Part shown: positions 1 through 64,000 of the stretch, piece by piece | How positions within the stretch are numbered: the first letter of the stretch is position 1 | Layout: each line of letters starts with the position of its first letter | IMG/VR virus record: IMGVR_UViG_3300028327_000004 | Coordinates: 3,713-67,712 of that record | Direction: 5' to 3' (one strand) | From: a virus | Lineage: Duplodnaviria > Caudoviricetes | DNA: 64,000 nucleotides | Notes under the pieces: generated by a model | Told to the model about the DNA's origin: nothing | Databases searched by the model: none | The model's input: only the letters and a program-made list of their open reading frames with translations | Position numbers and translations under genes: made by a program

Positions 1-119
1 CCATTGAGTAAAATAATAGTAAGAAAAGCCAAAACGAATAAAATTATTATCAATAAATGCACAATGGGTAATTCGTTCAGATCCAGCTTTACGCTTGTTT
101 CCAATAAATATAAATACAA
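1..119 (-). CDS. Partial membrane protein running off the left edge, possibly a holin
   Basis: GGAGG RBS then TTG at 119; open frame with hydrophobic stretch LLIIILFVLAFLTIILL; position after tail fibres. Confidence 0.4.
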   Translation of the reverse strand, partial: MYLYLLETSVKLDLNELPIVHLLIIILFVLAFLTIILLN

Positions 120-128
120 TTTCCCTCC

Positions 129-2831
129 CTATACTTCTTTAACCCAAACAGGCTGTCCCTGCGTGCCGTTGTTTGTGCGTGTAACTTTCAGGGTAAAATT
201 GCCGCTTTCATTGGGCAGAGGGGGTACGCCGAAACCCGGATCGCCTTTTTCTCCGGGTGAGCCTTTTGCAACCCATATAAATACATCACTTATACCTGTT
301 GCGCTTGGAGGCAGGGTCAATCTGTATGCATTATTCATCCAGATTACACTTAAGATTACAGTAGTAGTATTATCCATTACCTTTACGTCCCAAGACGTAC
401 CACTCTTTGCTGGAAGCGTGAATGGAACAATTGTGTACAGTCTACCTTGATTATTACTCCTAAACCAACCTACGATGAGGTCTCCTGCATTCAAATTACT
501 CCCTAGTAGTATCTCATTGTTCACTACTGATACTTGGGATGATATGTTCTGATTCTCTACACCCTCGCCTTTCGGCCCGCGGATGCCGACCATCTCTTTT
601 ATGGTCAAGTTATTATAATTAAGACTATTAACAGTAACAGGCCCGCCATTAGCAAAATACCTCATCTGTATGCCGTCAGCAGTAACCATCACCATTAAAT
701 ATGCGCCACTAATTGACGCATTCGGGCCTGAAATCAATAAGCGGAAAGCCCCATCATTACCAGCAGTAGTTACAGTTGATAAATTATATGAAGTACCATT
801 TATGACTATGGAGCCAGATATAACGTAGCTTTTATCGGAAGCGGCCTCTGGTAGATATAGGACAAAACTACTAGGTTCAGGCTGTACTATTGCCCAGTTT
901 GCGATTGCTCTAGGAATTAGGCCAGTTCTCGTCCCTTCCGGCCCCTGCGGGCCAGTATCGCCCTTCATAAATTCCGTTGCTTCAAGAGCAGCAGCAGTAG
1001 CAAAGTAATCCGGCAAATGCCCGTCCAGTTTCGCGCTGTCTACCGCTTGTGAGGCCGCTGGTAAGGCGTTATCCGCTTTTGTTCCCTGCGTTGCGGTAGC
1101 GTACTCGCTCGCCGTTTTGCCGTCCAGCTTGTTACTGTCAGCGGCTTTCGCGGTTTTGCCCAGGTACGAATTGTCGCTTATTGTCCTTTCCGCTTCGAGG
1201 GCTTCCTCAAGTTCCAGTTCGTCAATAAAATCTTGATTGTCTCCGAACCACGTCCAATTCGCGGCGTGGTTGTTTGCGTCAATCGGGATCGCCTGCCACA
1301 CTCCGTTATTGCTCGGTGTCGGATCGGCAAGAACGCGGCATAAATAAGTGAACGAGGTTGACGTTAATGCCCCTGGCAATGCTGATTTCGTTTGTACTGC
1401 CGGAAGCCATTTCTGCGTTGCAAGTTTCGCCGCCGCCACTTTTTCATCGGTGTTTTCAGCCGCCGCCTGTATCGCCTCGTCCCTTGCCGCTTCAATGTCG
1501 CTGGTAAAATCAGGCCCCAGCCGTTGCGGAACAACTACCAATGGAGAGCTGGGGGCAGATTGTAGAACTCTGAAAATCTTATTATTTACAGGACTTATAA
1601 GGTAGTCCCCATGTTGTACGCCGCTTTCCGCTATCCATGTACTCCAGTCCCCGGAAGCGTAGTATATATGGTCGAATTCTATGTCATCAGGATCAAGTGG
1701 CTCTCCGCCGATTGTATCAGTAAGCAGAAGATCAGAACCAATAGTAAATGTGGCAACGCCGCGGGGAGCTACATATTCCTCCGCGTCAAGTTTGCCGTCC
1801 CACCTTGAGCGTTCTTGAGACGTTATGTGCTTTTCGGTATTGTTTGCATGGGAATTAAAATCGGTTATGTCTACTTTAAGCCCCATTGCCGTATTGAAAG
1901 CGGTTATATCCAGTTTACTTGAAAGCAGATTGTCAATTTGTGTTTTAGTATAGTATTGGGTTAAATCTACTTTCGCCGATTCTGATTCCTGTTTTTGAGT
2001 ACCGTCCCACCAATAATCAGGGACATCGAGGGCGATAATTAAAAAGAGATCGCCGATATTAAGCGCGTCTACATTTTCCTGTACCAACAGCCATGCGTCC
2101 AGTTCCGCGACATCGGCAAATACCTTTGCCCTCGCCCTGCCCTCGGCGATTGCCCTCGCTTCGTCTACCCTGCCCGACAAGGCGTTATCGGCATTGATCC
2201 TGTTTTGCGTTTCGGTGTTCAGGGCTGCGGGCTGTACAGCGCTGTCGGCTTTGCCGAGGCTGTCCTGCACGTCCTGGGCCAAATCTTCCCGCGGTATGCC
2301 GCCGTCAGGGGGTTCATAACCGCCGCCCCCGGCATTGCCGCCGCCGCTTCCGCCCCCAGCTCCGGGGAAAGTATACAAATCCGTCCATTCGGTCGGTTCA
2401 AAATTCACGAAACGGTATTGTATCGTGTCCGTGTTTTCTTTGATCCGGAATTGCGGCGCCTCTCCGTCCTTGCCGCGTAAAGATATAAGCCATTGCTCAA
2501 GCGTACCTTGAAAGCCGGCCTGTACCGCCAGCTCATACGCCGATTTACCGTCCTGCGCTTTCAGCCTTGAAAGATCATACAGATCGATCCAGTTGTTATC
2601 ACCGACAAAACGCCATTTTAAGAAATCAGCGTCCGATGTTAATTCAAGGTTTCGCGCCCTGCCGGTTTCGCCGGTGTCCACATAGCCCGGTATTGTGGGA
2701 TCGAATAATTCCCAATGGCCTGTGGTCGAATTTATCCGCGGATAGTTTATAGGGACGCCATGCAGGGCGACGCTGTCAGTATATCTTTTAGCCCTTTGTG
2801 TGGCCAATATAAAGGCGGTCATTCCATTCAT
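129..2831 (-). CDS. Long tail fibre / receptor-binding protein with collagen-like segments
   Basis: About 900 aa; GKSAYELAV..GFQGTLEQWL motif, GxY triplets, KLDG repeats, beta-rich C-terminus; start MNGM overlaps upstream TAA (TAATG). Confidence 0.75.
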   Translation of the reverse strand: MNGMTAFILATQRAKRYTDSVALHGVPINYPRINSTTGHWELFDPTIPGYVDTGETGRARNLELTSDADFLKWRFVGDNNWIDLYDLSRLKAQDGKSAYELAVQAGFQGTLEQWLISLRGKDGEAPQFRIKENTDTIQYRFVNFEPTEWTDLYTFPGAGGGSGGGNAGGGGYEPPDGGIPREDLAQDVQDSLGKADSAVQPAALNTETQNRINADNALSGRVDEARAIAEGRARAKVFADVAELDAWLLVQENVDALNIGDLFLIIALDVPDYWWDGTQKQESESAKVDLTQYYTKTQIDNLLSSKLDITAFNTAMGLKVDITDFNSHANNTEKHITSQERSRWDGKLDAEEYVAPRGVATFTIGSDLLLTDTIGGEPLDPDDIEFDHIYYASGDWSTWIAESGVQHGDYLISPVNNKIFRVLQSAPSSPLVVVPQRLGPDFTSDIEAARDEAIQAAAENTDEKVAAAKLATQKWLPAVQTKSALPGALTSTSFTYLCRVLADPTPSNNGVWQAIPIDANNHAANWTWFGDNQDFIDELELEEALEAERTISDNSYLGKTAKAADSNKLDGKTASEYATATQGTKADNALPAASQAVDSAKLDGHLPDYFATAAALEATEFMKGDTGPQGPEGTRTGLIPRAIANWAIVQPEPSSFVLYLPEAASDKSYVISGSIVINGTSYNLSTVTTAGNDGAFRLLISGPNASISGAYLMVMVTADGIQMRYFANGGPVTVNSLNYNNLTIKEMVGIRGPKGEGVENQNISSQVSVVNNEILLGSNLNAGDLIVGWFRSNNQGRLYTIVPFTLPAKSGTSWDVKVMDNTTTVILSVIWMNNAYRLTLPPSATGISDVFIWVAKGSPGEKGDPGFGVPPLPNESGNFTLKVTRTNNGTQGQPVWVKEV

Positions 2832-3185: not shown

Positions 3186-3569
3186 TTAAGCTGCTTCCAA
3201 CGTCCTTATTTCTTGGCGCCAGGCCTGGCGTTCAGCGATCTTTCCGGCGTATTCTTCCACTGTGGCAGAACCCTCGGAGATTTTGGCCGCGATGTAATCC
3301 GTTTCCGCAAGCAGTTTTTTGAGGACCCGGACGCGCTCGGTATTCGTTTCCGCCAGCTTTTCCGCGTCCGTTTTGCCGATGAAGATTTCACCGTCAATGT
3401 CGCGTACCAGGCTGCCCTTTGCCTCATATTCTTTAAGGGGCATTTTCTTCAGGACTTTGGTAACCCCGTCCAGTTCCTTCATAGCGTTAACGTCAGTATG
3501 CGCTACCAACGTCCCATCGGCTTTCCTGCCGATAAACACTTGCTTTTCTCCCATGATACCCTCCGTCAT
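3186..3569 (-). CDS. Tail-fibre-associated (assembly chaperone-like) protein
   Basis: C-terminal LAETDY..AK...ERQAWRQEI motif typical of small genes downstream of phage fibres; ATGA overlap with RT stop. Confidence 0.55.
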   Translation of the reverse strand: MTEGIMGEKQVFIGRKADGTLVAHTDVNAMKELDGVTKVLKKMPLKEYEAKGSLVRDIDGEIFIGKTDAEKLAETNTERVRVLKKLLAETDYIAAKISEGSATVEEYAGKIAERQAWRQEIRTLEAA

Positions 3570-4702: not shown

Positions 4703-4964
4703 AAAACTCCTTAAAGCCCTGTATAGCATCCCCGGGCTTATCTGCGACCCGCTTCAAAGCCCGGGGTTATGCGTTAACCATGCTACATAGCGTCAACAGG
4801 CATGAAACGGAAGGAACGCACAACCTACCGCCATGCAAGCAGCGTTCGCCTGGACGCATCAGGGTTACTATTCGCCGCCTTTAATGGGCGGCAGGATACG
4901 GTCTCCTTCTGTGGGCGGACAAATCGGTTATAAATAACCTACTCGTGGTTTGTCTCCACGGAAT
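4703..4964 (-). ncRNA. Structured TR-RT spacer (probable 3' part of DGR RNA)
   Basis: Non-coding; hairpins CCCCGGGCT/AGCCCGGGG (4730-4766) and GCCGCC/GGCGGC (4874-4892); position matches DGR spacer. Confidence 0.5.
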
Positions 4965-5055
4965 CGGGGGCGACCCCACCGGCCGCACTCGCATTGTTGT
5001 TGTTGTTGCTATTACCATTGTTGTTGCAATTACAGAAATACGCGGCAGACGAGGC
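4965..5055 (-). repeat. DGR template repeat (TR), 91 bp
   Basis: Reads ASSAAYFCNCNNNGNSNNNNNASAAGGVAP; 23 adenines, 10 AAY codons; matches 5862-5952 and 57956-58043 except at its adenines. Confidence 0.97.
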
Positions 5056-5072
5056 CATTACAGACCGAACCC

Positions 5073-5684
5073 TTATTCACTTTCTAAAGTTCTTCCCTTT
5101 AACTCTCCTTTCAATATTTTTTTTGCTAATTCGTTTGTGGATTTACGCCAGCCTTTCAGCAGGCGTATTTCAAATTGTAATTTGTCGATGAACGGCAGTA
5201 TTTTGTCCACGCCGATTTTGAACGTGTCAAACTTCATGGAAAAAACGTCCACAAAGTATTGGAGCTCCTGAATAAGCTGCTGGCAGTTGGCGATGGCGGT
5301 TGTCTGGTAGCGCCGCCTGTCCGCCAGTTCGTCCATTTGCACGCGCTGTACATAGTATTCCGGAAGTTTGGCGGCGTTCGGGCTTTTCGGATCTTCCATC
5401 GATGAGGGGTAGATTGAATTGCCCCCGGTAATGTTCATCATCAGGTTACGCAAAATCTGCATAATGGTGCGCCTGTATTCGGCAAGCAGCCATTCCGGGA
5501 ACTCCCCTAAAATCGTTTCATCTTCAATCTCAATTTCGGGTACGGGCTGTTTTCCGTTTTTTGGGGTTTTTAATTTTAATCCGAAGTTTCGCAGAAGGCA
5601 GACGGTCAGTTCTTTTCGCAGTTGCCGGGCGTTATTGTAGAATTCAAGCTTAGATAGACCTCTTTTGTTTTTTAAGACCGACAC
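5073..5684 (-). CDS. avd: Avd-like DGR accessory variability determinant
   Basis: Between target and TR; starts (M)SVLKNKR with RBS; helical protein ending EIRLLKGWRKS as in Avd four-helix bundles. Confidence 0.8.
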   Translation of the reverse strand: MSVLKNKRGLSKLEFYNNARQLRKELTVCLLRNFGLKLKTPKNGKQPVPEIEIEDETILGEFPEWLLAEYRRTIMQILRNLMMNITGGNSIYPSSMEDPKSPNAAKLPEYYVQRVQMDELADRRRYQTTAIANCQQLIQELQYFVDVFSMKFDTFKIGVDKILPFIDKLQFEIRLLKGWRKSTNELAKKILKGELKGRTLESE

Positions 5685-5756
5685 ATTCCCCCTCCCGAAT
5701 GCATTGCCCAAAATTCAAAAAATTTTTCGGCCGCTACGCGGCAAATAAATTTGTGG

Positions 5757-5844: not shown

Positions 5845-7257
5845 CTACGCCACACAGAAAGCGGGGGCGACCCCACCGGCCGCACTCGCATTGTGGTAGT
5901 AGATGCTATTACCATCGTGGCTGCAAACACAGAAATACGCGGCAGACGAGGCGGAGGGGTTATTCATCCACCACCAATCCCGCGATCCGTTCCAGCGCTT
6001 CACCCTGAACACGCTACCCTTCTGGTATATCGGCAGGAATACGCTCGTGCCGTCTCCTACATCCTGTTCAGCAAATCCGGGGGTTCCAAAAACTTCAACG
6101 GTAGTCAGCGGGAAAACTGTGGCATTAAACCAATTCCAGCCACCTTTTGTTGACCACAATTTTCTTATTGTCAGCAACGGGTTATTGCCGCCCAAAGCGG
6201 CCTTGAGGCCTGTCGCGAAAGGCCCAGAGCCGTCCCCATTGGCGCCCTCAAGCCATGCCCTCAATTCACTGGCGGCCGCGGCATAACCCCCGGCGTTATC
6301 ATCGTTCGCCCTCATGCGCGCTTTGGCGACTATATGCCGCGTTATGAAAACGACATGGTTCTTTGTGTTTTCCGTGTCGCCGGAATGCTTGTAATTGTTG
6401 AAACCGGCGATTAAAAGCCGGGTATTCTTATAGTTCGCATTCCACGCCTGGGGCGCAGTTCCCCCGGTCGGCGCGGCAATGGCACTGAGGTCAAGGCCGT
6501 CCAGAAAATCAGCGTCATTCAAGCCCGTGAAGTTCGGAACGCCGCTTCCGTCAATCTCGCTGTTGTTGTTGCTCCGATACCGGATATTCGCCATAACCTC
6601 AGCGATGGCTTCATTGCGCAGCGACTGGGTTGTCATTTCCTCGATGCCGTGGCCAAGAATGACCGCCATCAGGTCGCGGCCTAAACCTTCAACCTGGTTG
6701 GCCTGGAAAGTACGGAGTCCGGGAACCCTCATTCTGCCCAGGGCGTCAATATAGACGGAATCAAACTCGCGGCCGCCTTTAACAATGCCAGCAATGTCAT
6801 CATTGTTACCAATGCTAACACTGTCGAGGCCGTCATCAACCCATTCAAAAACGGGCGGATCAGTTTCCGGCGTATTGTTCAGTACCCACACATGGCCGTT
6901 GAACATATTTTTAACGTGGGTATTGTCCCAGATAAGCGTCCGATCCGTCTGCCCGATCTGCCCCAGGGCGTAATCGGTGAGCTGTTGCTGTGTCGGGGTT
7001 GCCGTCCCAAAATCAAATGCCGTGAGGTATCCCCCGCGGCCCTGCATGGAAGTTATCTGCCGTTGTAAATCATCGGTATTATCTTCCAATTCTTTTTTCA
7101 GGTATGCCGTTCGGTTCGCAAGCTGTTTTCCTTGAAGGTTGTCGATGCCGTCAGATCCGCCTTGCAACGGGTCGGTGATTTCATACTGGTAAATCCCCTG
7201 TTCCCATACGGGGCTTTCCGGCAAAATGTTAGCGTTCGGCGGTAAACTAATTCCCAT
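5845..7257 (-). CDS. DGR target 1: tail fibre/adhesin with C-terminal CLec-like (DUF6273-like) variable domain
   Basis: N-terminus WEQGIYQYEITDPLQGG..QLANRTAYLK typical of myovirus fibre attachment; VR encodes the C-terminal residues. Confidence 0.9.
   Translation of the reverse strand: MGISLPPNANILPESPVWEQGIYQYEITDPLQGGSDGIDNLQGKQLANRTAYLKKELEDNTDDLQRQITSMQGRGGYLTAFDFGTATPTQQQLTDYALGQIGQTDRTLIWDNTHVKNMFNGHVWVLNNTPETDPPVFEWVDDGLDSVSIGNNDDIAGIVKGGREFDSVYIDALGRMRVPGLRTFQANQVEGLGRDLMAVILGHGIEEMTTQSLRNEAIAEVMANIRYRSNNNSEIDGSGVPNFTGLNDADFLDGLDLSAIAAPTGGTAPQAWNANYKNTRLLIAGFNNYKHSGDTENTKNHVVFITRHIVAKARMRANDDNAGGYAAAASELRAWLEGANGDGSGPFATGLKAALGGNNPLLTIRKLWSTKGGWNWFNATVFPLTTVEVFGTPGFAEQDVGDGTSVFLPIYQKGSVFRVKRWNGSRDWWWMNNPSASSAAYFCVCSHDGNSIYYHNASAAGGVAPAFCVA
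5862..5952 (-). repeat. Variable repeat VR1
   Basis: 91 bp, 9 mismatches to TR, all at TR adenines. Confidence 0.97.
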
Positions 7258-52091: not shown

Positions 52092-52850
52092 CTAAAATAA
52101 TTCTCCCTGGACCAATTCACGCGCCGGGGGTAGGCTTATAACTTTCTCTACTTCCTTTTCTTCCTGTGGTTCTGTTTGCGGTTGTGTTATCCGATCAAAC
52201 ATTCTTTCTGTCTTGAGCCGGAAATCCATCCCACTTATGCAGTAGCCGATTGTTTCCCATTCCCAGAATGTTTCATTGGTCAATGCATTACCGCAGACAA
52301 TGACGGCGGGCGCGCCTAGCAAACTCATCTGAATAAAAGTCATCCGCGCGCATCGGGGATCGATATCAATTCCTTTGAAATATACGTCCCACTGATAATT
52401 CATTCCGCGCTTTCTCAGTACATCGGCGCTGGCTATGAGCATAACGCCCGATCCGCAAGCCGGATCGCATATCTTCAATATCTGGTTTTTGGGAGCATCA
52501 CCAATAGACATTTCTGCCATCATGTAGGATATGTGGTAGGGCGTAAAAAATTGGCCGGTTCTTGAATTAGACATCTCCCCATAGGTAAATACTTCGCCTA
52601 AAAAGTCCTGTTCCTTTTCCTCAAGGGCATCAGTTACCATTCCCAATAATCCGCTTAGCTGTTCTAATTCTTCCTTCGTATACAGCTTGGCGACTTGTAA
52701 GTATTCTTCCTCGACCGCCTTGTCTTTTTTCCATGTAGCGTACAGGGAAGCAGATGCCAATATCAGCCAATCGCTAAAAATCTCATAACGGCTTTTTGAC
52801 GGCCTTATTTTATCCAGTTTCTTTATAAACTCTTGAACATGCGGCGTCAT
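52092..52850 (-). CDS. N6-adenine methyltransferase-like protein lacking the NPPY motif
   Basis: GQFFTP, DPACGSG, GIDID, GNAL; no NPP(Y/F/W). Confidence 0.8.
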   Translation of the reverse strand: MTPHVQEFIKKLDKIRPSKSRYEIFSDWLILASASLYATWKKDKAVEEEYLQVAKLYTKEELEQLSGLLGMVTDALEEKEQDFLGEVFTYGEMSNSRTGQFFTPYHISYMMAEMSIGDAPKNQILKICDPACGSGVMLIASADVLRKRGMNYQWDVYFKGIDIDPRCARMTFIQMSLLGAPAVIVCGNALTNETFWEWETIGYCISGMDFRLKTERMFDRITQPQTEPQEEKEVEKVISLPPARELVQGELF

Positions 52851-56529: not shown

Positions 56530-57011
56530 GCTGGTATCCTCCCGTTCAAATCCAAACAGATCCTTTTGCCATCAAGGGTGTACTCAAGCCATGCGCCTTT
56601 CGGATATTTATCTGAGTAAATTCCGTTTCTGAGAATGATTCTTGCGTGTGCTTCTGTTAAACCGTAGATTCTGTCAATGACGTATTCGCCTTCGCCATCA
56701 TCACCTTCATCATCGCGCCATTCGATAACTTTGAATTGGATAAATTCATCCGCGTCCGGCATCGGTTTTTCAGTGTTATCTTCATTCAAAAAACCTTTGA
56801 GGGCGGGCAGGTATTCTTTCCGGATTCCCCAGCCGGAACTCATCCAGAAATGCCCTTCATCCGTGAAGCTGTAAATTGTAAGACCGGGACTGAGTGAATC
56901 ATTCAGTTCATCAATTACGATGACCTTCGATCCGTTTTCGCCGTTGGCGATGTGGTGTTTAGGGTTGCCTTTGCTTTCAAGCCATTCCGCTAAACTTTTG
57001 TACTCTCTCAT
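56526..57011 (-). CDS. Hypothetical protein, first gene of a leftward operon
   Basis: AAGGAG RBS; downstream of promoter 57106-57134. Confidence 0.65.
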   Translation of the reverse strand: MREYKSLAEWLESKGNPKHHIANGENGSKVIVIDELNDSLSPGLTIYSFTDEGHFWMSSGWGIRKEYLPALKGFLNEDNTEKPMPDADEFIQFKVIEWRDDEGDDGEGEYVIDRIYGLTEAHARIILRNGIYSDKYPKGAWLEYTLDGKRICLDLNGRIPA

Positions 57012-57105
57012 AAAATTCTCCTTTGGCCTTTGGCCATTCGGCTACCGGGGCTTCCGGCTGCCGTTTTTTTAATGTTCTAGTATTCCGATAGTAGAACATA
57101 TATAA

Positions 57106-57134
57106 AGAATACCCCTGCCATAGTATGCTGTCAA
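57106..57134 (-). promoter_or_regulatory. Leftward promoter
   Basis: TTGACA-N17-TATTCT. Confidence 0.65.
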
Positions 57135-57237
57135 GTTCCAGAAGGGAATTTTGGGGTTTTTTGAAAGTTTTTTGATTTTTTACTATACATTCGTATAGTA
57201 AAATGTCCCAGTTTCGGAACATTTTACCATTTATTAC

Positions 57238-57267
57238 TTGATCTATATCATCTGGGAAGGTTATACT
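57238..57267 (+). promoter_or_regulatory. Rightward promoter for a probably leaderless HTH gene
   Basis: TTGATC-N18-TATACT, 7 nt before ATG 57275; no RBS. Confidence 0.6.
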
Positions 57268-57274
57268 TCTATGT

Positions 57275-57514
57275 ATGAAAGAATTGACGGCGGTAGACAT
57301 GGCCCAAATACTGGGCATATCCTCAGATGGCGTAAAAAGAAGATTACAAAGAAAGGGCATCCGCCCGTTCAAATACATAGGCCCTGTAGGTATATATAAA
57401 GAAGATGATTTGGAAGCAATAAAAGACGGCGGCGCCAGAGGCCGGCCGAAAGTAGAAACACCAGGTAAAAAAACACCCAAAAAGACAACGAAAAAACCCA
57501 CTAAAAAAACCTGA
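57275..57514 (+). CDS. HTH DNA-binding protein with RGRP AT-hook and Lys-rich tail
   Basis: LTAVDMAQILGISSDGVKRRL; ARGRPK. Confidence 0.78.
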   Translation: MKELTAVDMAQILGISSDGVKRRLQRKGIRPFKYIGPVGIYKEDDLEAIKDGGARGRPKVETPGKKTPKKTTKKPTKKT

Positions 57515-57873
57515 GAAAAGAGAGGCAATTCCATTTGCGTACTCTGTTTAGGCGGCTCTGCCGGAGGCTCAGCTTCCAGGGCTGTTTCCTTTCTTATTTC
57601 AGCCAGCTCTTCAGATACCGATTTCACTTTCAGTTTTTTGTATAGGCTTTTATTCTGGTCCTCGACACAGAACGCGTAACGCCGATGGCGCCGCGCCATC
57701 CGGAGTATCGTGTCGGGGTACATATTTACAGCGTCCGGGTAAATCTCCACAACGTCCCTTTTAAGCTCATTGCCGTGAAATACAAATCCTGCTGGGTATG
57801 CGTCTATCACCTTGCGGACTGCGGCGCTCATCGATGAGAGTTTTTCTTCTTTTTCGCAATCCGGCATATTCAT
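57511..57873 (-). CDS. Hypothetical protein downstream of target 2 (3' end uncertain)
   Basis: Plausible about 120 aa domain ending near QMELPLF; the frame stays open to 56977. Confidence 0.45.
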
Positions 57874-57897
57874 AAAAAAATGACTCCAGAAGTTAAG

Positions 57898-57921
57898 TCC
57901 CGCCCCACAAGGGGGACGGGA
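57898..57921 (-). other. DGR target-recognition hairpin downstream of VR2
   Basis: TCCCGCCCC-ACAAG-GGGG(A)CGGGA; same CCCCACAAGGGGG core as 5809-5821; 34 nt past VR2. Confidence 0.85.
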
Positions 57922-57938
57922 TATTGGATTGGTGTGGC

Positions 57939-58799
57939 TTACGCCACACAGAATACGGGGGCGACCCCACCGGCCGCACTCGCATTGATGCGGCTGCAAT
58001 AACCATGGTAGCCGCAAATACAGAAATACGCGGCAGACGAGGCGCGCGCAGAAGCCGTCCAATACCAATGGGTATCATCTTCCCAAACCTTGATCCTGTT
58101 TTTGATTTTCTTGAAGAAAGAAAACTGTTGCGGCTCGTCAAAATAATTTGATTCCGGCTCCCAGTAATCCTCATCGCCAAAAAGTTCATAGGCCGTAAGG
58201 AGTGAGATTTTATGTTCTTTTCCTTTTTCCCATGTGCCGTTACACGCCAGCAGAACGTCCCCAATGCCGAATGCGTCCAAGAATTCCGTATTGAGATATT
58301 TGCCCAGGGCGCCCGCATGAATGCCGCCCTCGTTCACGTCTTTTGCGTTAATAGCGGACAGGAATATTATTTCATCGAAATTAAAGATGATTTTTCCGTC
58401 CACTACTTCAATGATCTGGACTTTCCCGTCAACGTGCAGGGCCGGGAATAATACGCCGTCATGTTTTGCCGCGGGAACGTCAAACTCTACCCGGATAAAA
58501 TCGCCGATATTAAGAAGCGAAGGATCTCCGGACCGTAAAACTTCCTGCGACAGACTGAAAGCATGGCGCCAATCCTGCGCCCTCAGGTAACGGGTAAGAT
58601 CGCTCCTTTCTCCGACATGGCGCCTTTCCAATTCAGAGTTAGTTGTTTCAGGCGTTTCCGGATTTTCCAGTTTCCCATGTTTGGTTAGTAACTGGAGCTT
58701 GATCTTTGAAGACCACGGCCTTTTAGAAAACTTTGTGATTAAAAACCCGGCCGTTGAAAGCGCCGCGGTTAACCGATTTAATGTTTTGTTGTCATACAT
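57939..58799 (-). CDS. DGR target 2: non-structural CLec-like (DUF6273-like) protein
   Basis: GGAGG RBS before MYDN; ISLLTAYELFG, WYW, C-terminus ASSAAYFC...NASAAGGVAPVFCVA shared with target 1. Confidence 0.9.
   Translation of the reverse strand: MYDNKTLNRLTAALSTAGFLITKFSKRPWSSKIKLQLLTKHGKLENPETPETTNSELERRHVGERSDLTRYLRAQDWRHAFSLSQEVLRSGDPSLLNIGDFIRVEFDVPAAKHDGVLFPALHVDGKVQIIEVVDGKIIFNFDEIIFLSAINAKDVNEGGIHAGALGKYLNTEFLDAFGIGDVLLACNGTWEKGKEHKISLLTAYELFGDEDYWEPESNYFDEPQQFSFFKKIKNRIKVWEDDTHWYWTASARASSAAYFCICGYHGYCSRINASAAGGVAPVFCVA
57956..58043 (-). repeat. Variable repeat VR2
   Basis: 88 bp; 11 mismatches all at TR adenines plus one 3-nt gap in the AAC run. Confidence 0.95.
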
Positions 58800-58934
58800 A
58801 TAAACCTCCATATATGAACAGCGGATCGGGCTGGGCTCGAACCAGCGTCTGGTCGGTAAAGGAGGTTTTCGGAAACCCGCCATGTCCTGCCGTCTGGACG
58901 ACCGATCCATTGCCCGTCTCTCCGGGCTGTCGTT

Positions 58935-59722: not shown

Positions 59723-60124
59723 TTACAATTCCGTTTCGATAGTGATTTGCGCCCCGGTTTTTCTCCCGGTGTAGTATTTCCCGGTCAGTATTTCATAGAC
59801 CTGGGAATCATCTTCCCAAATGCCGATGTCAGTTAACGAATCCATCGTGCTTTTCAGAAGATTGTCGGTGTCAGGTTTTTTCACATGGGGTATAGGGACG
59901 CTGTTTGCCATTTTCATTCCCTTTGGCAAGGGGATTGAAAAACGAACCGTAAGCCGTACCGGCCCGGTAATGGTCTTTTTCCGGCAGGGGAGGAAAGCGG
60001 CTTTTACTTCGTCTTTCCATGAGTCCGCCGTATGGGGGTTGTATACATGGCCGTTGCGCGCCATCCGCGGCCTGGGCTGGGGTTTCGGCGTGCCTTCGAC
60101 AAATATCTGATAAATCGTTTTCAT
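59723..60124 (-). CDS. rusA: RusA-family Holliday junction resolvase
   Basis: PKPQPRPR, KKPDTDNLLKSTMDSL..WEDDSQV. Confidence 0.92.
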   Translation of the reverse strand: MKTIYQIFVEGTPKPQPRPRMARNGHVYNPHTADSWKDEVKAAFLPCRKKTITGPVRLTVRFSIPLPKGMKMANSVPIPHVKKPDTDNLLKSTMDSLTDIGIWEDDSQVYEILTGKYYTGRKTGAQITIETEL

Positions 60125-60336
60125 TAAAGCGTCTCCACTAAAACCCTTTTCATTAGCCGCTTCATAGACAGCCGCCGCTTCTGTTTGTTGCTCTGCGGTT
60201 CGCCTTTTTCCTCCGCAAAGTATTTGCAATGGATTGAAACGCAGTAATAAGGAACGGATGCTAAACATTTTTTGCCCTCGCAGTTAGCGCAGTATTTACA
60301 GATAACGCCATACATTTGCTCCGATACATCCGTCAC
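60124..60336 (-). CDS. Cys-rich hypothetical protein
   Basis: CKYCANC...C..C..C. Confidence 0.55.
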   Translation of the reverse strand: MTDVSEQMYGVICKYCANCEGKKCLASVPYYCVSIHCKYFAEEKGEPQSNKQKRRLSMKRLMKRVLVETL

Positions 60337-60542
60337 GCCTTCCTCTTTCCGGCAGTTTTACCGGGCTTCGCATACCGCATATCCCATGCCTTCCATGCCT
60401 CAGGCTCGGTGTCATGCCAGCCTGTTGAGGCTCCGCATTTTTGGCACTGCGCCCGGAACTTTGCAGGCTTGCCCCCGGCATATTTCAAAGTGTCGATAGC
60501 GGCGCCGTTACCGCAGAACGGGCAGCCGTGATGACCTTTCAT
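60333..60542 (-). CDS. Lar-like restriction alleviation Zn-finger protein
   Basis: CPFCG...CQKCGA...EAWKAWDMR. Confidence 0.7.
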   Translation of the reverse strand: MKGHHGCPFCGNGAAIDTLKYAGGKPAKFRAQCQKCGASTGWHDTEPEAWKAWDMRYAKPGKTAGKRKA

Positions 60543-60960: not shown

Positions 60961-61206
60961 TCATACACCCTCCGGCTTTTTACCGGCTGGATTTTTTGTT
61001 ATGCGCTGCCAGTCCTCAAGATCAGCAGAGTCGAAAAGCCTTTTTCTCAGGCCTGGCGAATGGTAGGGAAAAGGGAGCTTGCCTTTTTGAATTTGTTTGT
61101 TAATCCATTCCGCGCTCATACCGATTTTTTTCGCGGCCTCTTTTGTGTCCAGCAACGTACCGCGGACTGGTTTATCTTCTTGCGGTACTGCTTTGCCTTC
61201 CCTCAT
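60961..61206 (-). CDS. Cro/excisionase-like HTH protein
   Basis: LLDTKEAAKKIGMSAEWI...RLFDSADLEDW; divergent from the cI-like gene. Confidence 0.8.
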   Translation of the reverse strand: MREGKAVPQEDKPVRGTLLDTKEAAKKIGMSAEWINKQIQKGKLPFPYHSPGLRKRLFDSADLEDWQRITKNPAGKKPEGV

Positions 61207-61216
61207 CAACTCCTCC

Positions 61217-61404
61217 AAAAAAAAGCGGCGGAATTTTTCAGGGCTTACGGGGGGTAGTTCGGGCTACCGCCCAGCCTTCAAAATTCAGCCGCTTCTTCGC
61301 ACTGCCCGAACAATGCTAACCCAATTTCTTACAATTGGTAGTTACAGGTTTATTATTTCTTACTATTGTAAGATTGTCAAGCAAAAAAACTACTTTTTGT
61401 AAGA
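61217..61404. promoter_or_regulatory. Lysis/lysogeny switch: promoter, three operators, leader terminator
   Basis: TTGACA-N17-AATAAT (61352-61380, minus); 16-mers at 61327, 61358, 61389 sharing a TCTTAC/GTAAGA half-site; hairpin 61223-61294 plus U8. Confidence 0.75.
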
Positions 61405-63756: not shown

Positions 63757-63798
63757 ATTATACACCTATTGACGCAAAATACTCAATTTACTTATAAT
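63757..63798. promoter_or_regulatory. Overlapping divergent promoters
   Basis: Plus: TTGACG-N18-TATAAT (63769-63798); minus: TTGAGT-N18-TATAAT (63757-63786). Confidence 0.6.
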
Positions 63799-63857
63799 AC
63801 TTGAGATTATAATTCTATATGGGTACGGTATTTATATACCGCATAAGGAATTAGTAT

Positions 63858-63914
63858 TCCCCAGAGCGAATGACTCTGGATCTGCTTGTGGGGGTTCAAA
63901 TCCTCCCTGGGGAA
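63858..63914 (+). pseudogene. D-arm-less tRNA-Gln(CTG)-like element / possible att core
   Basis: TCCCCAG/CTGGGGA acceptor stem, CT-CTG-GA anticodon loop, GGGGG-TTCAAAT-CCTCC T-arm; only 9 nt between acceptor 5' strand and anticodon loop. Confidence 0.65.
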
Positions 63915-64000
63915 CAAATAATAGCACCCCGTTAAGGGGTGTAGACGGATAAATGCAACTGGTTCCGGCGCCGGACAAATCAACCACGATAAGTAAATGC

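Follow-up and report, generated by a model that had tools for sequence, protein, structure and literature searches.

One retroelement, two targets

The 64,000-nucleotide (nt) stretch analysed here (the window; bases 3713-67712 of the 67,712-nt virus record IMGVR_UViG_3300028327_000004, rated complete by CheckV) carries a single diversity-generating retroelement (DGR) that has two targets. Target 1 is the tail-fibre gene next to the reverse transcriptase (RT); target 2 is a 286-amino-acid (aa) gene of the early operon, and it is a real second target of the same DGR. The overall reading that we favour, and hold to be probable, is one DGR serving two targets, the second of which is an intracellular early protein with a programmable lectin-type surface.

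A repeat search of the window returned a ~90-nt sequence in three copies (4962-5055, 5859-5952 and 57950-58043), corresponding to the template repeat (TR) and to the variable repeats VR1 and VR2, which close the tail-fibre gene and the 286-aa gene, respectively (Table 1). Compared with TR, VR1 has 9 substitutions and VR2 has 11, every one of them at a TR adenine. With 23 adenines in the 91-nt TR core, random placement would put all 11 VR2 substitutions on adenines with a probability of 1.1e-8, and not a single non-A substitution is found in the 88 nt. The identity block of VR2 begins exactly at the TR 5′ end, and VR2 differs from VR1 at many sites but from TR by substitution at adenines only. 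The alignment thus agrees with the first-pass annotation of this DNA as to the substitutions and their positions; absent from that claim was an in-frame 3-nt (one-codon) deletion that VR2 shows inside the (AAC)4 run, VR1 being equal to TR in length.

All three copies are identical through GGTGGGGTCGCCCCCG. Past this point VR1 and VR2 both continue TTCTGTGTGGCGTA(A)GCCACAC and then form a second GC hairpin, whereas TR diverges. The initiation of mutagenic homing (IMH) sequence common to both variable repeats reads ...GTCGCCCCCG-NN-TTCTGTGTGGCGT, and TR has ATTCCGTGGAGAC instead. Such an arrangement, IMH in the VR and IMH* in the TR, is typical of BPP-1-type DGRs. The statement that target 2 has the same IMH and hairpins as the tail-fibre target is therefore upheld, and VR2 combines A-only differences, an IMH unlike IMH*, a downstream hairpin and a cognate RT in the same replicon. 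Because 11 of 11 substitutions are at TR adenines and the IMH and hairpins are common to VR1, we conclude that VR2 was templated by TR. As proteins, the tail fibre and target 2 are only distantly paralogous, with 33% identity across their DUF6273 domains; near-identity is limited to the TR-templated stretch, the footprint expected of retrohoming from a common template.

VR2 and TR are separated by 52 kb on the integrated map, as originally reported, but by about 14.5 kb across the attachment-site (att) junction of the excised circle. Only three repeat copies (one TR) and only one RT were found in the whole record. The earlier remark that no second RT or TR lies nearby consequently holds for the entire sequence, including the 3.7 kb outside the window.

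The target-2 gene and its product

The span first proposed for target 2 (57898-58799) is too long for the gene proper, which covers 57939-58799; its 57898-57938 portion is the downstream hairpin region. Two other gene models were rejected: an open reading frame (ORF) at 57939-58910 (323 aa) runs over a tRNA-like element and has no ribosome-binding site (RBS), and another at 56977-58068 overlaps VR2 out of frame.

Hydropathy, PHROG searches and alignment confirmed that the protein has no signal peptide, transmembrane (TM) segment or fibre-attachment domain. The maximum 19-residue Kyte-Doolittle mean is 1.36, the N-terminus has nothing signal-peptide-like, and there is neither a tail-fibre PHROG match nor an N-terminal alignment with the VR1 protein, which matches tail-fibre PHROGs at residues 12-89. 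The C-terminus matches Pfam DUF6273 (27.4 bits, cut-off 23.5; profile positions 75-170 of 172), a domain known from DGR targets and described as C-type-lectin-like (PMC10743442). VR2 lies at the C-terminal end of this domain, and phrog_21980 covers residues 130-284.

An AlphaFold 2 model built on 20 homologues (predicted local distance difference test, 76.8) predicts an alpha/beta module (about residues 1-40), a disordered linker, a helix plus beta-sandwich (about 60-141) and a lectin-like domain (about 137-286). Residues 73-286 of the model match the DUF6273-bearing N-terminus of the Thomasclavelia (T. ramosa) immunoglobulin A peptidase (9qa6, Z 6.7), with weak fold matches to Legionella Lcl (8q4e, Z 3.9) and Treponema denticola TvpA (2y3c, Z 3.8). 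Many phage DUF6273 proteins in BFVD align with target 2 as well, and Foldseek against the PDB gave nothing at E <= 0.001.

A spirochaete family in which the layout recurs

A homology search found 33 full-length homologues (275-300 aa, 42-67% identity), and an exhaustive profile search gave about 35 full-length clusters at 50% identity, with the lectin part alone present in thousands of proteins. Named records of the family come from Treponema sp. metagenome-assembled genomes (MAGs) of termite gut and from one Spirochaetia bacterium. Hypervariability falls exactly at the TR-templated AAY codons of an otherwise conserved family: across 20 homologues, entropy is 2.76 bits at the 9 AAY-templated positions and 1.10 elsewhere (permutation p < 1e-5). 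Members differ in VR length as well. The IMH and both hairpins are kept in 9/9 family loci, and hairpin 1 shows a compensatory G/C change (GTGTGGC/GCCACAC vs GTGTCGC/GCGACAC). Since the homing signals are kept with covariation in every family member, selection on them is implied.

Gene order is conserved too. Four loci (L005, L006, L007 and L198) share the synteny integrase, regulators, RusA, ~200-aa gene, tRNA-like element, target, and then genes for single-stranded DNA-binding protein (SSB), AAA_24, SSB and ParB. At least five prophages have the target between RusA and SSB/Sak4/ParB genes, at 42-57% protein identity.

Scanning metagenome contigs for the 3′ flank specific to TRs brought to light an independent replicate of the two-target layout. 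One of the 28 TRs recovered is on the same 168-kb Joint Genome Institute contig as P0028 (Treponema sp. MAG), a homologue 44% identical to target 2. The layout was read on European Nucleotide Archive contig k141_793001, whose early gene, TR and Avd are identical to those of the 168-kb contig: the early gene is at 20.6-21.5 kb and the DUF6273 fibre/Avd/TR/RT cassette at about 66-70 kb, ~47 kb away on the same strand. Against the contig's own TR, the early-gene VR has 12 mismatches and the fibre VR 11, all at adenines and with no length change. As a control, the tail-fibre VRs recovered by the pattern were each compared with 34 TRs, and zero non-A mismatches occurred only to the own TR or an identical copy. 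The search for the two-target layout in related phages, suggested at first pass, thus has a positive outcome. Screening viral contigs with the pattern GGTGGNGTNGCCCCCG proved too loose, its matches being mostly chance.

A side observation concerns the first hairpin after the tail-fibre VR: in the relatives L157, L158 and L193 its arms are separated by an insertion of ~35 nt (GTGTGGCGTAAAAATAAAGCAAG...GTAGCCACAC). In these phages the hairpin of the early-gene VR has retained its tight loop of 3-4 nt.

Targets in records without a mutator

Two relatives in IMG/VR, G002 (67.6 kb, 100% complete) and G001 (82% complete), have the family gene, its IMH and both hairpins, and neither record contains an RT or a TR copy. 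The orphan VRs of L006, L009 and L010 match none of the 34 TRs. In the draft genome of Spirochaetia bacterium MS502-68, ParB is preceded by two family genes in tandem, both of which have a VR and hairpins. Elsewhere that draft contains two or more related DGRs, and no cognate TR for the tandem targets was found in it. Five other records of the same DGR lineage present the reverse situation, with RT, TR and tail-fibre VR and no early-gene family member found. The orphans may be explained by loss of the DGR, by assemblies that broke at the repeats, or by another element that rewrites them in trans.

Genomic context

The record is a temperate prophage of roughly 67.5 kb integrated in tRNA-Gln, with attL beside an integrase gene and the complete tRNA. 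A 'D-arm-less tRNA-Gln-like RNA' considered at 63769-63945 is most simply the partial copy of tRNA-Gln(CTG) at attR. All phage genes of the window are on the - strand. Six sequencing runs, all of termite-gut metagenomes, contain the phage, and placement by its relatives suggests a host among termite-gut Treponema/Spirochaetia.

The DGR is of the BPP-1 type (tail fibre with VR1, Avd-like gene, TR, RT). The best solved relative of its RT is 8ub7 ('Reverse transcriptase', E 1.9e-19), which we take to be the DGR RT of a Bordetella phage. The Avd-like call rests on position and on conservation in the relatives' cassettes; the protein has no Pfam, PHROG or PDB sequence match. On the 3′ side of the RT are a 127-aa ORF (3186-3569, -) and a 906-aa protein (129-2849, -) with tail-fibre-like PHROG matches, so that the cassette stands between two fibre genes.

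Table 1. Coordinates of the features discussed. Positions are those of the window unless marked as belonging to the record or to a related locus.
Feature	Position	Strand	Remarks
DGR reverse transcriptase, 387 aa	3566-4729	-	Pfam RVT_1 5.7e-16; phrog_1423 5.6e-80
TR	4965-5055	-	AAC/AAT-rich core; followed by IMH* ATTCCGTGGAGAC...GTAGGTT
Avd-like accessory gene	5073-5711	-	about 190-212 aa by start choice; between VR1 and TR
Target 1, tail fibre, 470 aa	5845-7257	-	N-terminal tail-fibre PHROGs, C-terminal DUF6273
VR1	5862-5952	-	in target 1
Methyltransferase-like gene	52092-52850	-	early operon
IMH-distal flank with two hairpins	57898-57955	-	3′ of VR2; common to VR1, absent from TR
Hairpin 2	about 57898-57920	-	GC-rich
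Hairpin 1	57932-57949	-	7 bp, GTGTGGC-GTAA-GCCACAC, stop codon in loop
Target 2, 286 aa	57939-58799	-	ATG at 58799, GGAGG RBS
VR2	57956-58043	-	in target 2
tRNA-like element	58821-58908	-	22 nt 5′ of target-2 start codon; ARAGORN
RusA	59723-60268	-	early operon; followed by two small ORFs
Lar restriction alleviation	60333-60542	-	early operon
Xis/MerR-like helix-turn-helix (HTH)	60961-61218	-	early operon
Promoter-like site	61352-61380	-	TTGACA-17-AATAAT, 11/12 consensus (consensus scan alone); heads early operon
attR	63872-63914	+	43-nt exact repeat of tRNA-Gln(CTG) 3′ end
attL	record 83-125		partner of attR, 43-nt direct repeat
Tyrosine integrase, PF00589	record 97-1554		beside complete tRNA
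tRNA-like element in relatives	L005 9882-9973; L006 8316-8418; L007 9890-9976; L010 7437-7522
Orphan-target loci			L010/L159 (IMGVR_UViG_3300002552_000004); L009/L153; L200 (Spirochaetia bacterium MS502-68, contig 172)

Early-gene placement of target 2 was confirmed by its neighbours. The operon runs HTH, Lar, RusA, two small ORFs, tRNA-like element and target 2, and continues with further genes, among them DnaJ/LPD29, the methyltransferase-like gene, a Sak4-like annealing protein, SSB and ParB. Between the promoter-like site and target 2, the only terminator-like site that the scan lists on the - strand is a weak one (59316-59302). Structural genes start some 20 kb past the early operon. Target 2 would be expressed early. 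The Lar and methyltransferase-like genes lend the operon a counter-defence flavour, as described around the distal target of Quimbyvirus.

Just 3′ of target 2 and antisense to the operon is a 79-aa HTH_17-like gene (57275-57514, +) preceded by several promoter-like sites. It is overlapped by a - strand ORF (56977-57873), and one of the two is probably no gene. L006 has an equivalent opposite-strand gene of 88 aa.

The tRNA-like element upstream of target 2 has canonical acceptor, D and T arms, and 32 nt replace the 17-nt anticodon arm, forming a long hairpin with a short variable loop. Covariation is seen in the acceptor and T stems (7 compensatory pairs), and our model (R1) detects the element in 5/6 family loci at a length of 86-92 nt. 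The anticodon assigned by ARAGORN differs per copy (Arg, Arg, Trp, Lys), and Rfam tRNA reaches 36.1 bits only with the anticodon arm skipped.

Weighing the explanations

In the explanation that we prefer, the RT would copy TR RNA into complementary DNA (cDNA) randomised at adenines, and this mutated cDNA would home to any DNA site ending in the matching GC-rich IMH and then a hairpin. Two such sites would exist, at the tip of the tail fibre and at the 3′ end of the 286-aa early-operon gene. Target 2 would be produced at an early stage of infection, or upon induction, as a soluble protein that stays inside the cell and is not part of the virion. About 9 variable residues of its DUF6273/C-type-lectin-like domain would make up a programmable surface for binding, carried on the conserved scaffold of residues 1-136. 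Its most likely use would be the binding of a fast-evolving component of the host or of a competing phage (counter-defence or exclusion). The non-virion reading is adopted because there is no TM segment or signal peptide, no tail-fibre N-terminal domain, and because the operon neighbours include Lar and a methyltransferase.

Several points weigh against this explanation. The non-virion reading draws only on where the gene lies and which domains the protein lacks, and the C-terminal two thirds of target 2 have their nearest fold relatives in parts of phage receptor-binding proteins. Residues 1-136 had no informative relative in structure comparison or in the Protein Atlas, where the N-terminal 130 residues of homologue P0028 returned sub-0.9 leads only. 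PADLOC, run on target 2 and its neighbours, matched the target to no defence or anti-defence family and gave two weak sub-threshold matches for neighbours, and no RNA run is among the sequencing runs listed for the phage. VR2 is one codon shorter than TR, and one VR2 allele is seen in contigs of three runs (X1-X3) from two samples, in a comparison made on assembled Logan contigs, which break at TR/VR repeats. Among the matches listed, X4 has a relative at roughly 90% with differences at a few sites in VR2. VR2 may thus be homed rarely or no longer.

The deletion deserves closer attention. Adenine mutagenesis has left VR2 without a repeat on which slippage could occur; the codon was therefore most likely lost in one of two ways, by slippage on (AAC)4 during reverse transcription, or apparently, through a gain of AAC by TR after VR2 was last written. 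Under the second, with VR1 rewritten later, VR2 would be homed less often than VR1 or no longer. That one DGR diversifies both targets stands as far as the VR/TR relation goes; current activity at VR2 is unsupported, given contigs only and the length mismatch. The first-pass proposal of a cytoplasmic binder of host defence proteins is not supported as stated. It stays at the level of inference, as do the timing of target-2 expression, its cytoplasmic location, its absence from the virion, its ligand and continued VR2 homing. What the sequences show directly is the VR/TR relation, the IMH with its hairpins, the genomic surroundings, the fold family, hypervariability across the family and the recurring layout.

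Target 2 could instead belong to the virion, as an additional receptor-binding or decoration protein encoded away from the structural module and attached to tail or head by its N-terminal module, with both targets serving host range. In BFVD, its DUF6273 domain and the preceding beta-sandwich do find their best alignments (E 3e-7 to 1e-3) in the C-terminal portions of receptor-binding and tail-collar proteins of phages, and in published two-target phage DGRs with two DUF6273 proteins both were read as receptor binders (PMC10743442). We nevertheless regard this as unlikely: the early-operon position is kept in at least five prophages despite their low protein identity, the structural module is 20-50 kb off, and the N-terminus is unlike the tail-fibre N-terminal PHROGs of the VR1 protein.

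An equally doubtful alternative makes VR2 a frozen relic, once written by the DGR and no longer homed, in a gene that evolves as an ordinary early gene. The codon missing from VR2 and not from VR1, the identical allele in three runs, the retention of the gene in G002 and G001 with no RT or TR in the record, and the tandem copies of MS502-68 with no cognate TR found would all suit it. Set against this, the IMH and hairpins are intact, the same as those of the active-looking VR1, and conserved with covariation family-wide, and a relic would have kept zero non-A substitutions over 88 nt. RT slippage in (AAC)4 is a simple alternative for the deletion, and TR/VR repeats break assemblies, so a TR missing from drafts is weak evidence.

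Ordinary recombination or gene conversion with the tail-fibre paralogue, conceivable in that both genes carry homologous DUF6273 domains, is effectively refuted by the A-only pattern of VR2 against TR. VR2 differs from VR1 at many sites, its identity block starts at the TR 5′ end, and the A-only pattern is found also in the independent relative (k141_793001).

Comparison with known systems

The cassette resembles that of Bordetella phage BPP-1 (Mtd, Avd, TR, bRT) in its A-specific mutagenesis pattern, GC-rich IMH vs IMH*, hairpin 3′ of the VR and C-terminal lectin-fold VR. Unlike BPP-1, where Mtd is the single, cassette-adjacent target, it has a second target 52 kb off on the prophage map, with a DUF6273 domain. 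T. denticola TvpA shares the spirochaete lineage and a lectin-fold variable protein; TvpA is, unlike target 2, a lipoprotein encoded by a cellular DGR. As in multi-target cellular DGRs, one TR serves dispersed targets.

A distal, non-structural target is not new to phages, contrary to what the first-pass annotation implied, having been described in two studies (PMC8008677, PMC12629997). The Bacteroides phage Quimbyvirus has one DGR and two VRs, one of them beside tail genes and the other away from the structural module, in a C-type-lectin protein that was judged to be non-structural and is encoded among methyltransferase/counter-defence genes (Benler 2021, Microbiome 9:78, PMC8008677). In four induced gut prophage species the second VR is likewise remote from the RT cassette, with counter-defence genes, methyltransferases for example, close by (Nature 2025, PMC12629997). 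Such remote-target cases look rare because the largest DGR survey, by its own statement, could not detect remote targets (PMC8144416).

By its published description, the distal target of Quimbyvirus is like target 2 in being far from the cassette, outside the structural module and among early/counter-defence genes. The present case differs from Quimbyvirus in its host (termite-gut Spirochaetota, not human-gut Bacteroidota), in an RT that is a single ORF, and in a target 2 that is on the operon strand, larger (286 aa) and furnished with a conserved 136-residue N-terminal extension. The four gut prophages come from cultured Bacteroidota hosts; here, unlike there, RT-less relatives keep the target. 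When target 2 was searched by tblastn against 50,697 deposited phages, it had two matches only, both weak and to lectin domains (Acutalibacter and Roseburia phages), and none to a Bacteroides-phage record; the small DUF6273 representative P0075 had no match among deposited phages.

Outside phages, a study of multicellular bacteria reports DGR-diversified intracellular sensors in putative conflict systems (PMC10907252), a precedent for non-surface, conflict-related DGR targets. Compared with the sensors reported there, target 2 is a small protein encoded by a phage, and no effector domain can be recognised in it.

The kind of layout is therefore already known, and no new category is opened. What is new here is the host phylum, a larger target family with an N-terminal extension, the RT-less relatives and the tRNA-like element.

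Implications

We speculate, with little confidence, that the ~285-aa family is a DGR-programmable intracellular binder, an adaptive inhibitor or sensor, acting as a unit with the upstream tRNA-like RNA, and that its RT-less copies are rewritten in trans by the DGRs of co-resident elements. If true, target and mutator would circulate separately among spirochaete prophages.

The lineage adds a second host phylum, Spirochaetota, for phages with a distal target, along with a distinct, well-populated protein family whose synteny is clear and within which the layout is replicated. Relatives that have the target and homing signals but no RT are natural comparison material, and make the question of the ligand more approachable. 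Phage DGRs are usually explained as host-range devices; conservation of a target in the early operon points to an additional, intracellular role for the same mutator.

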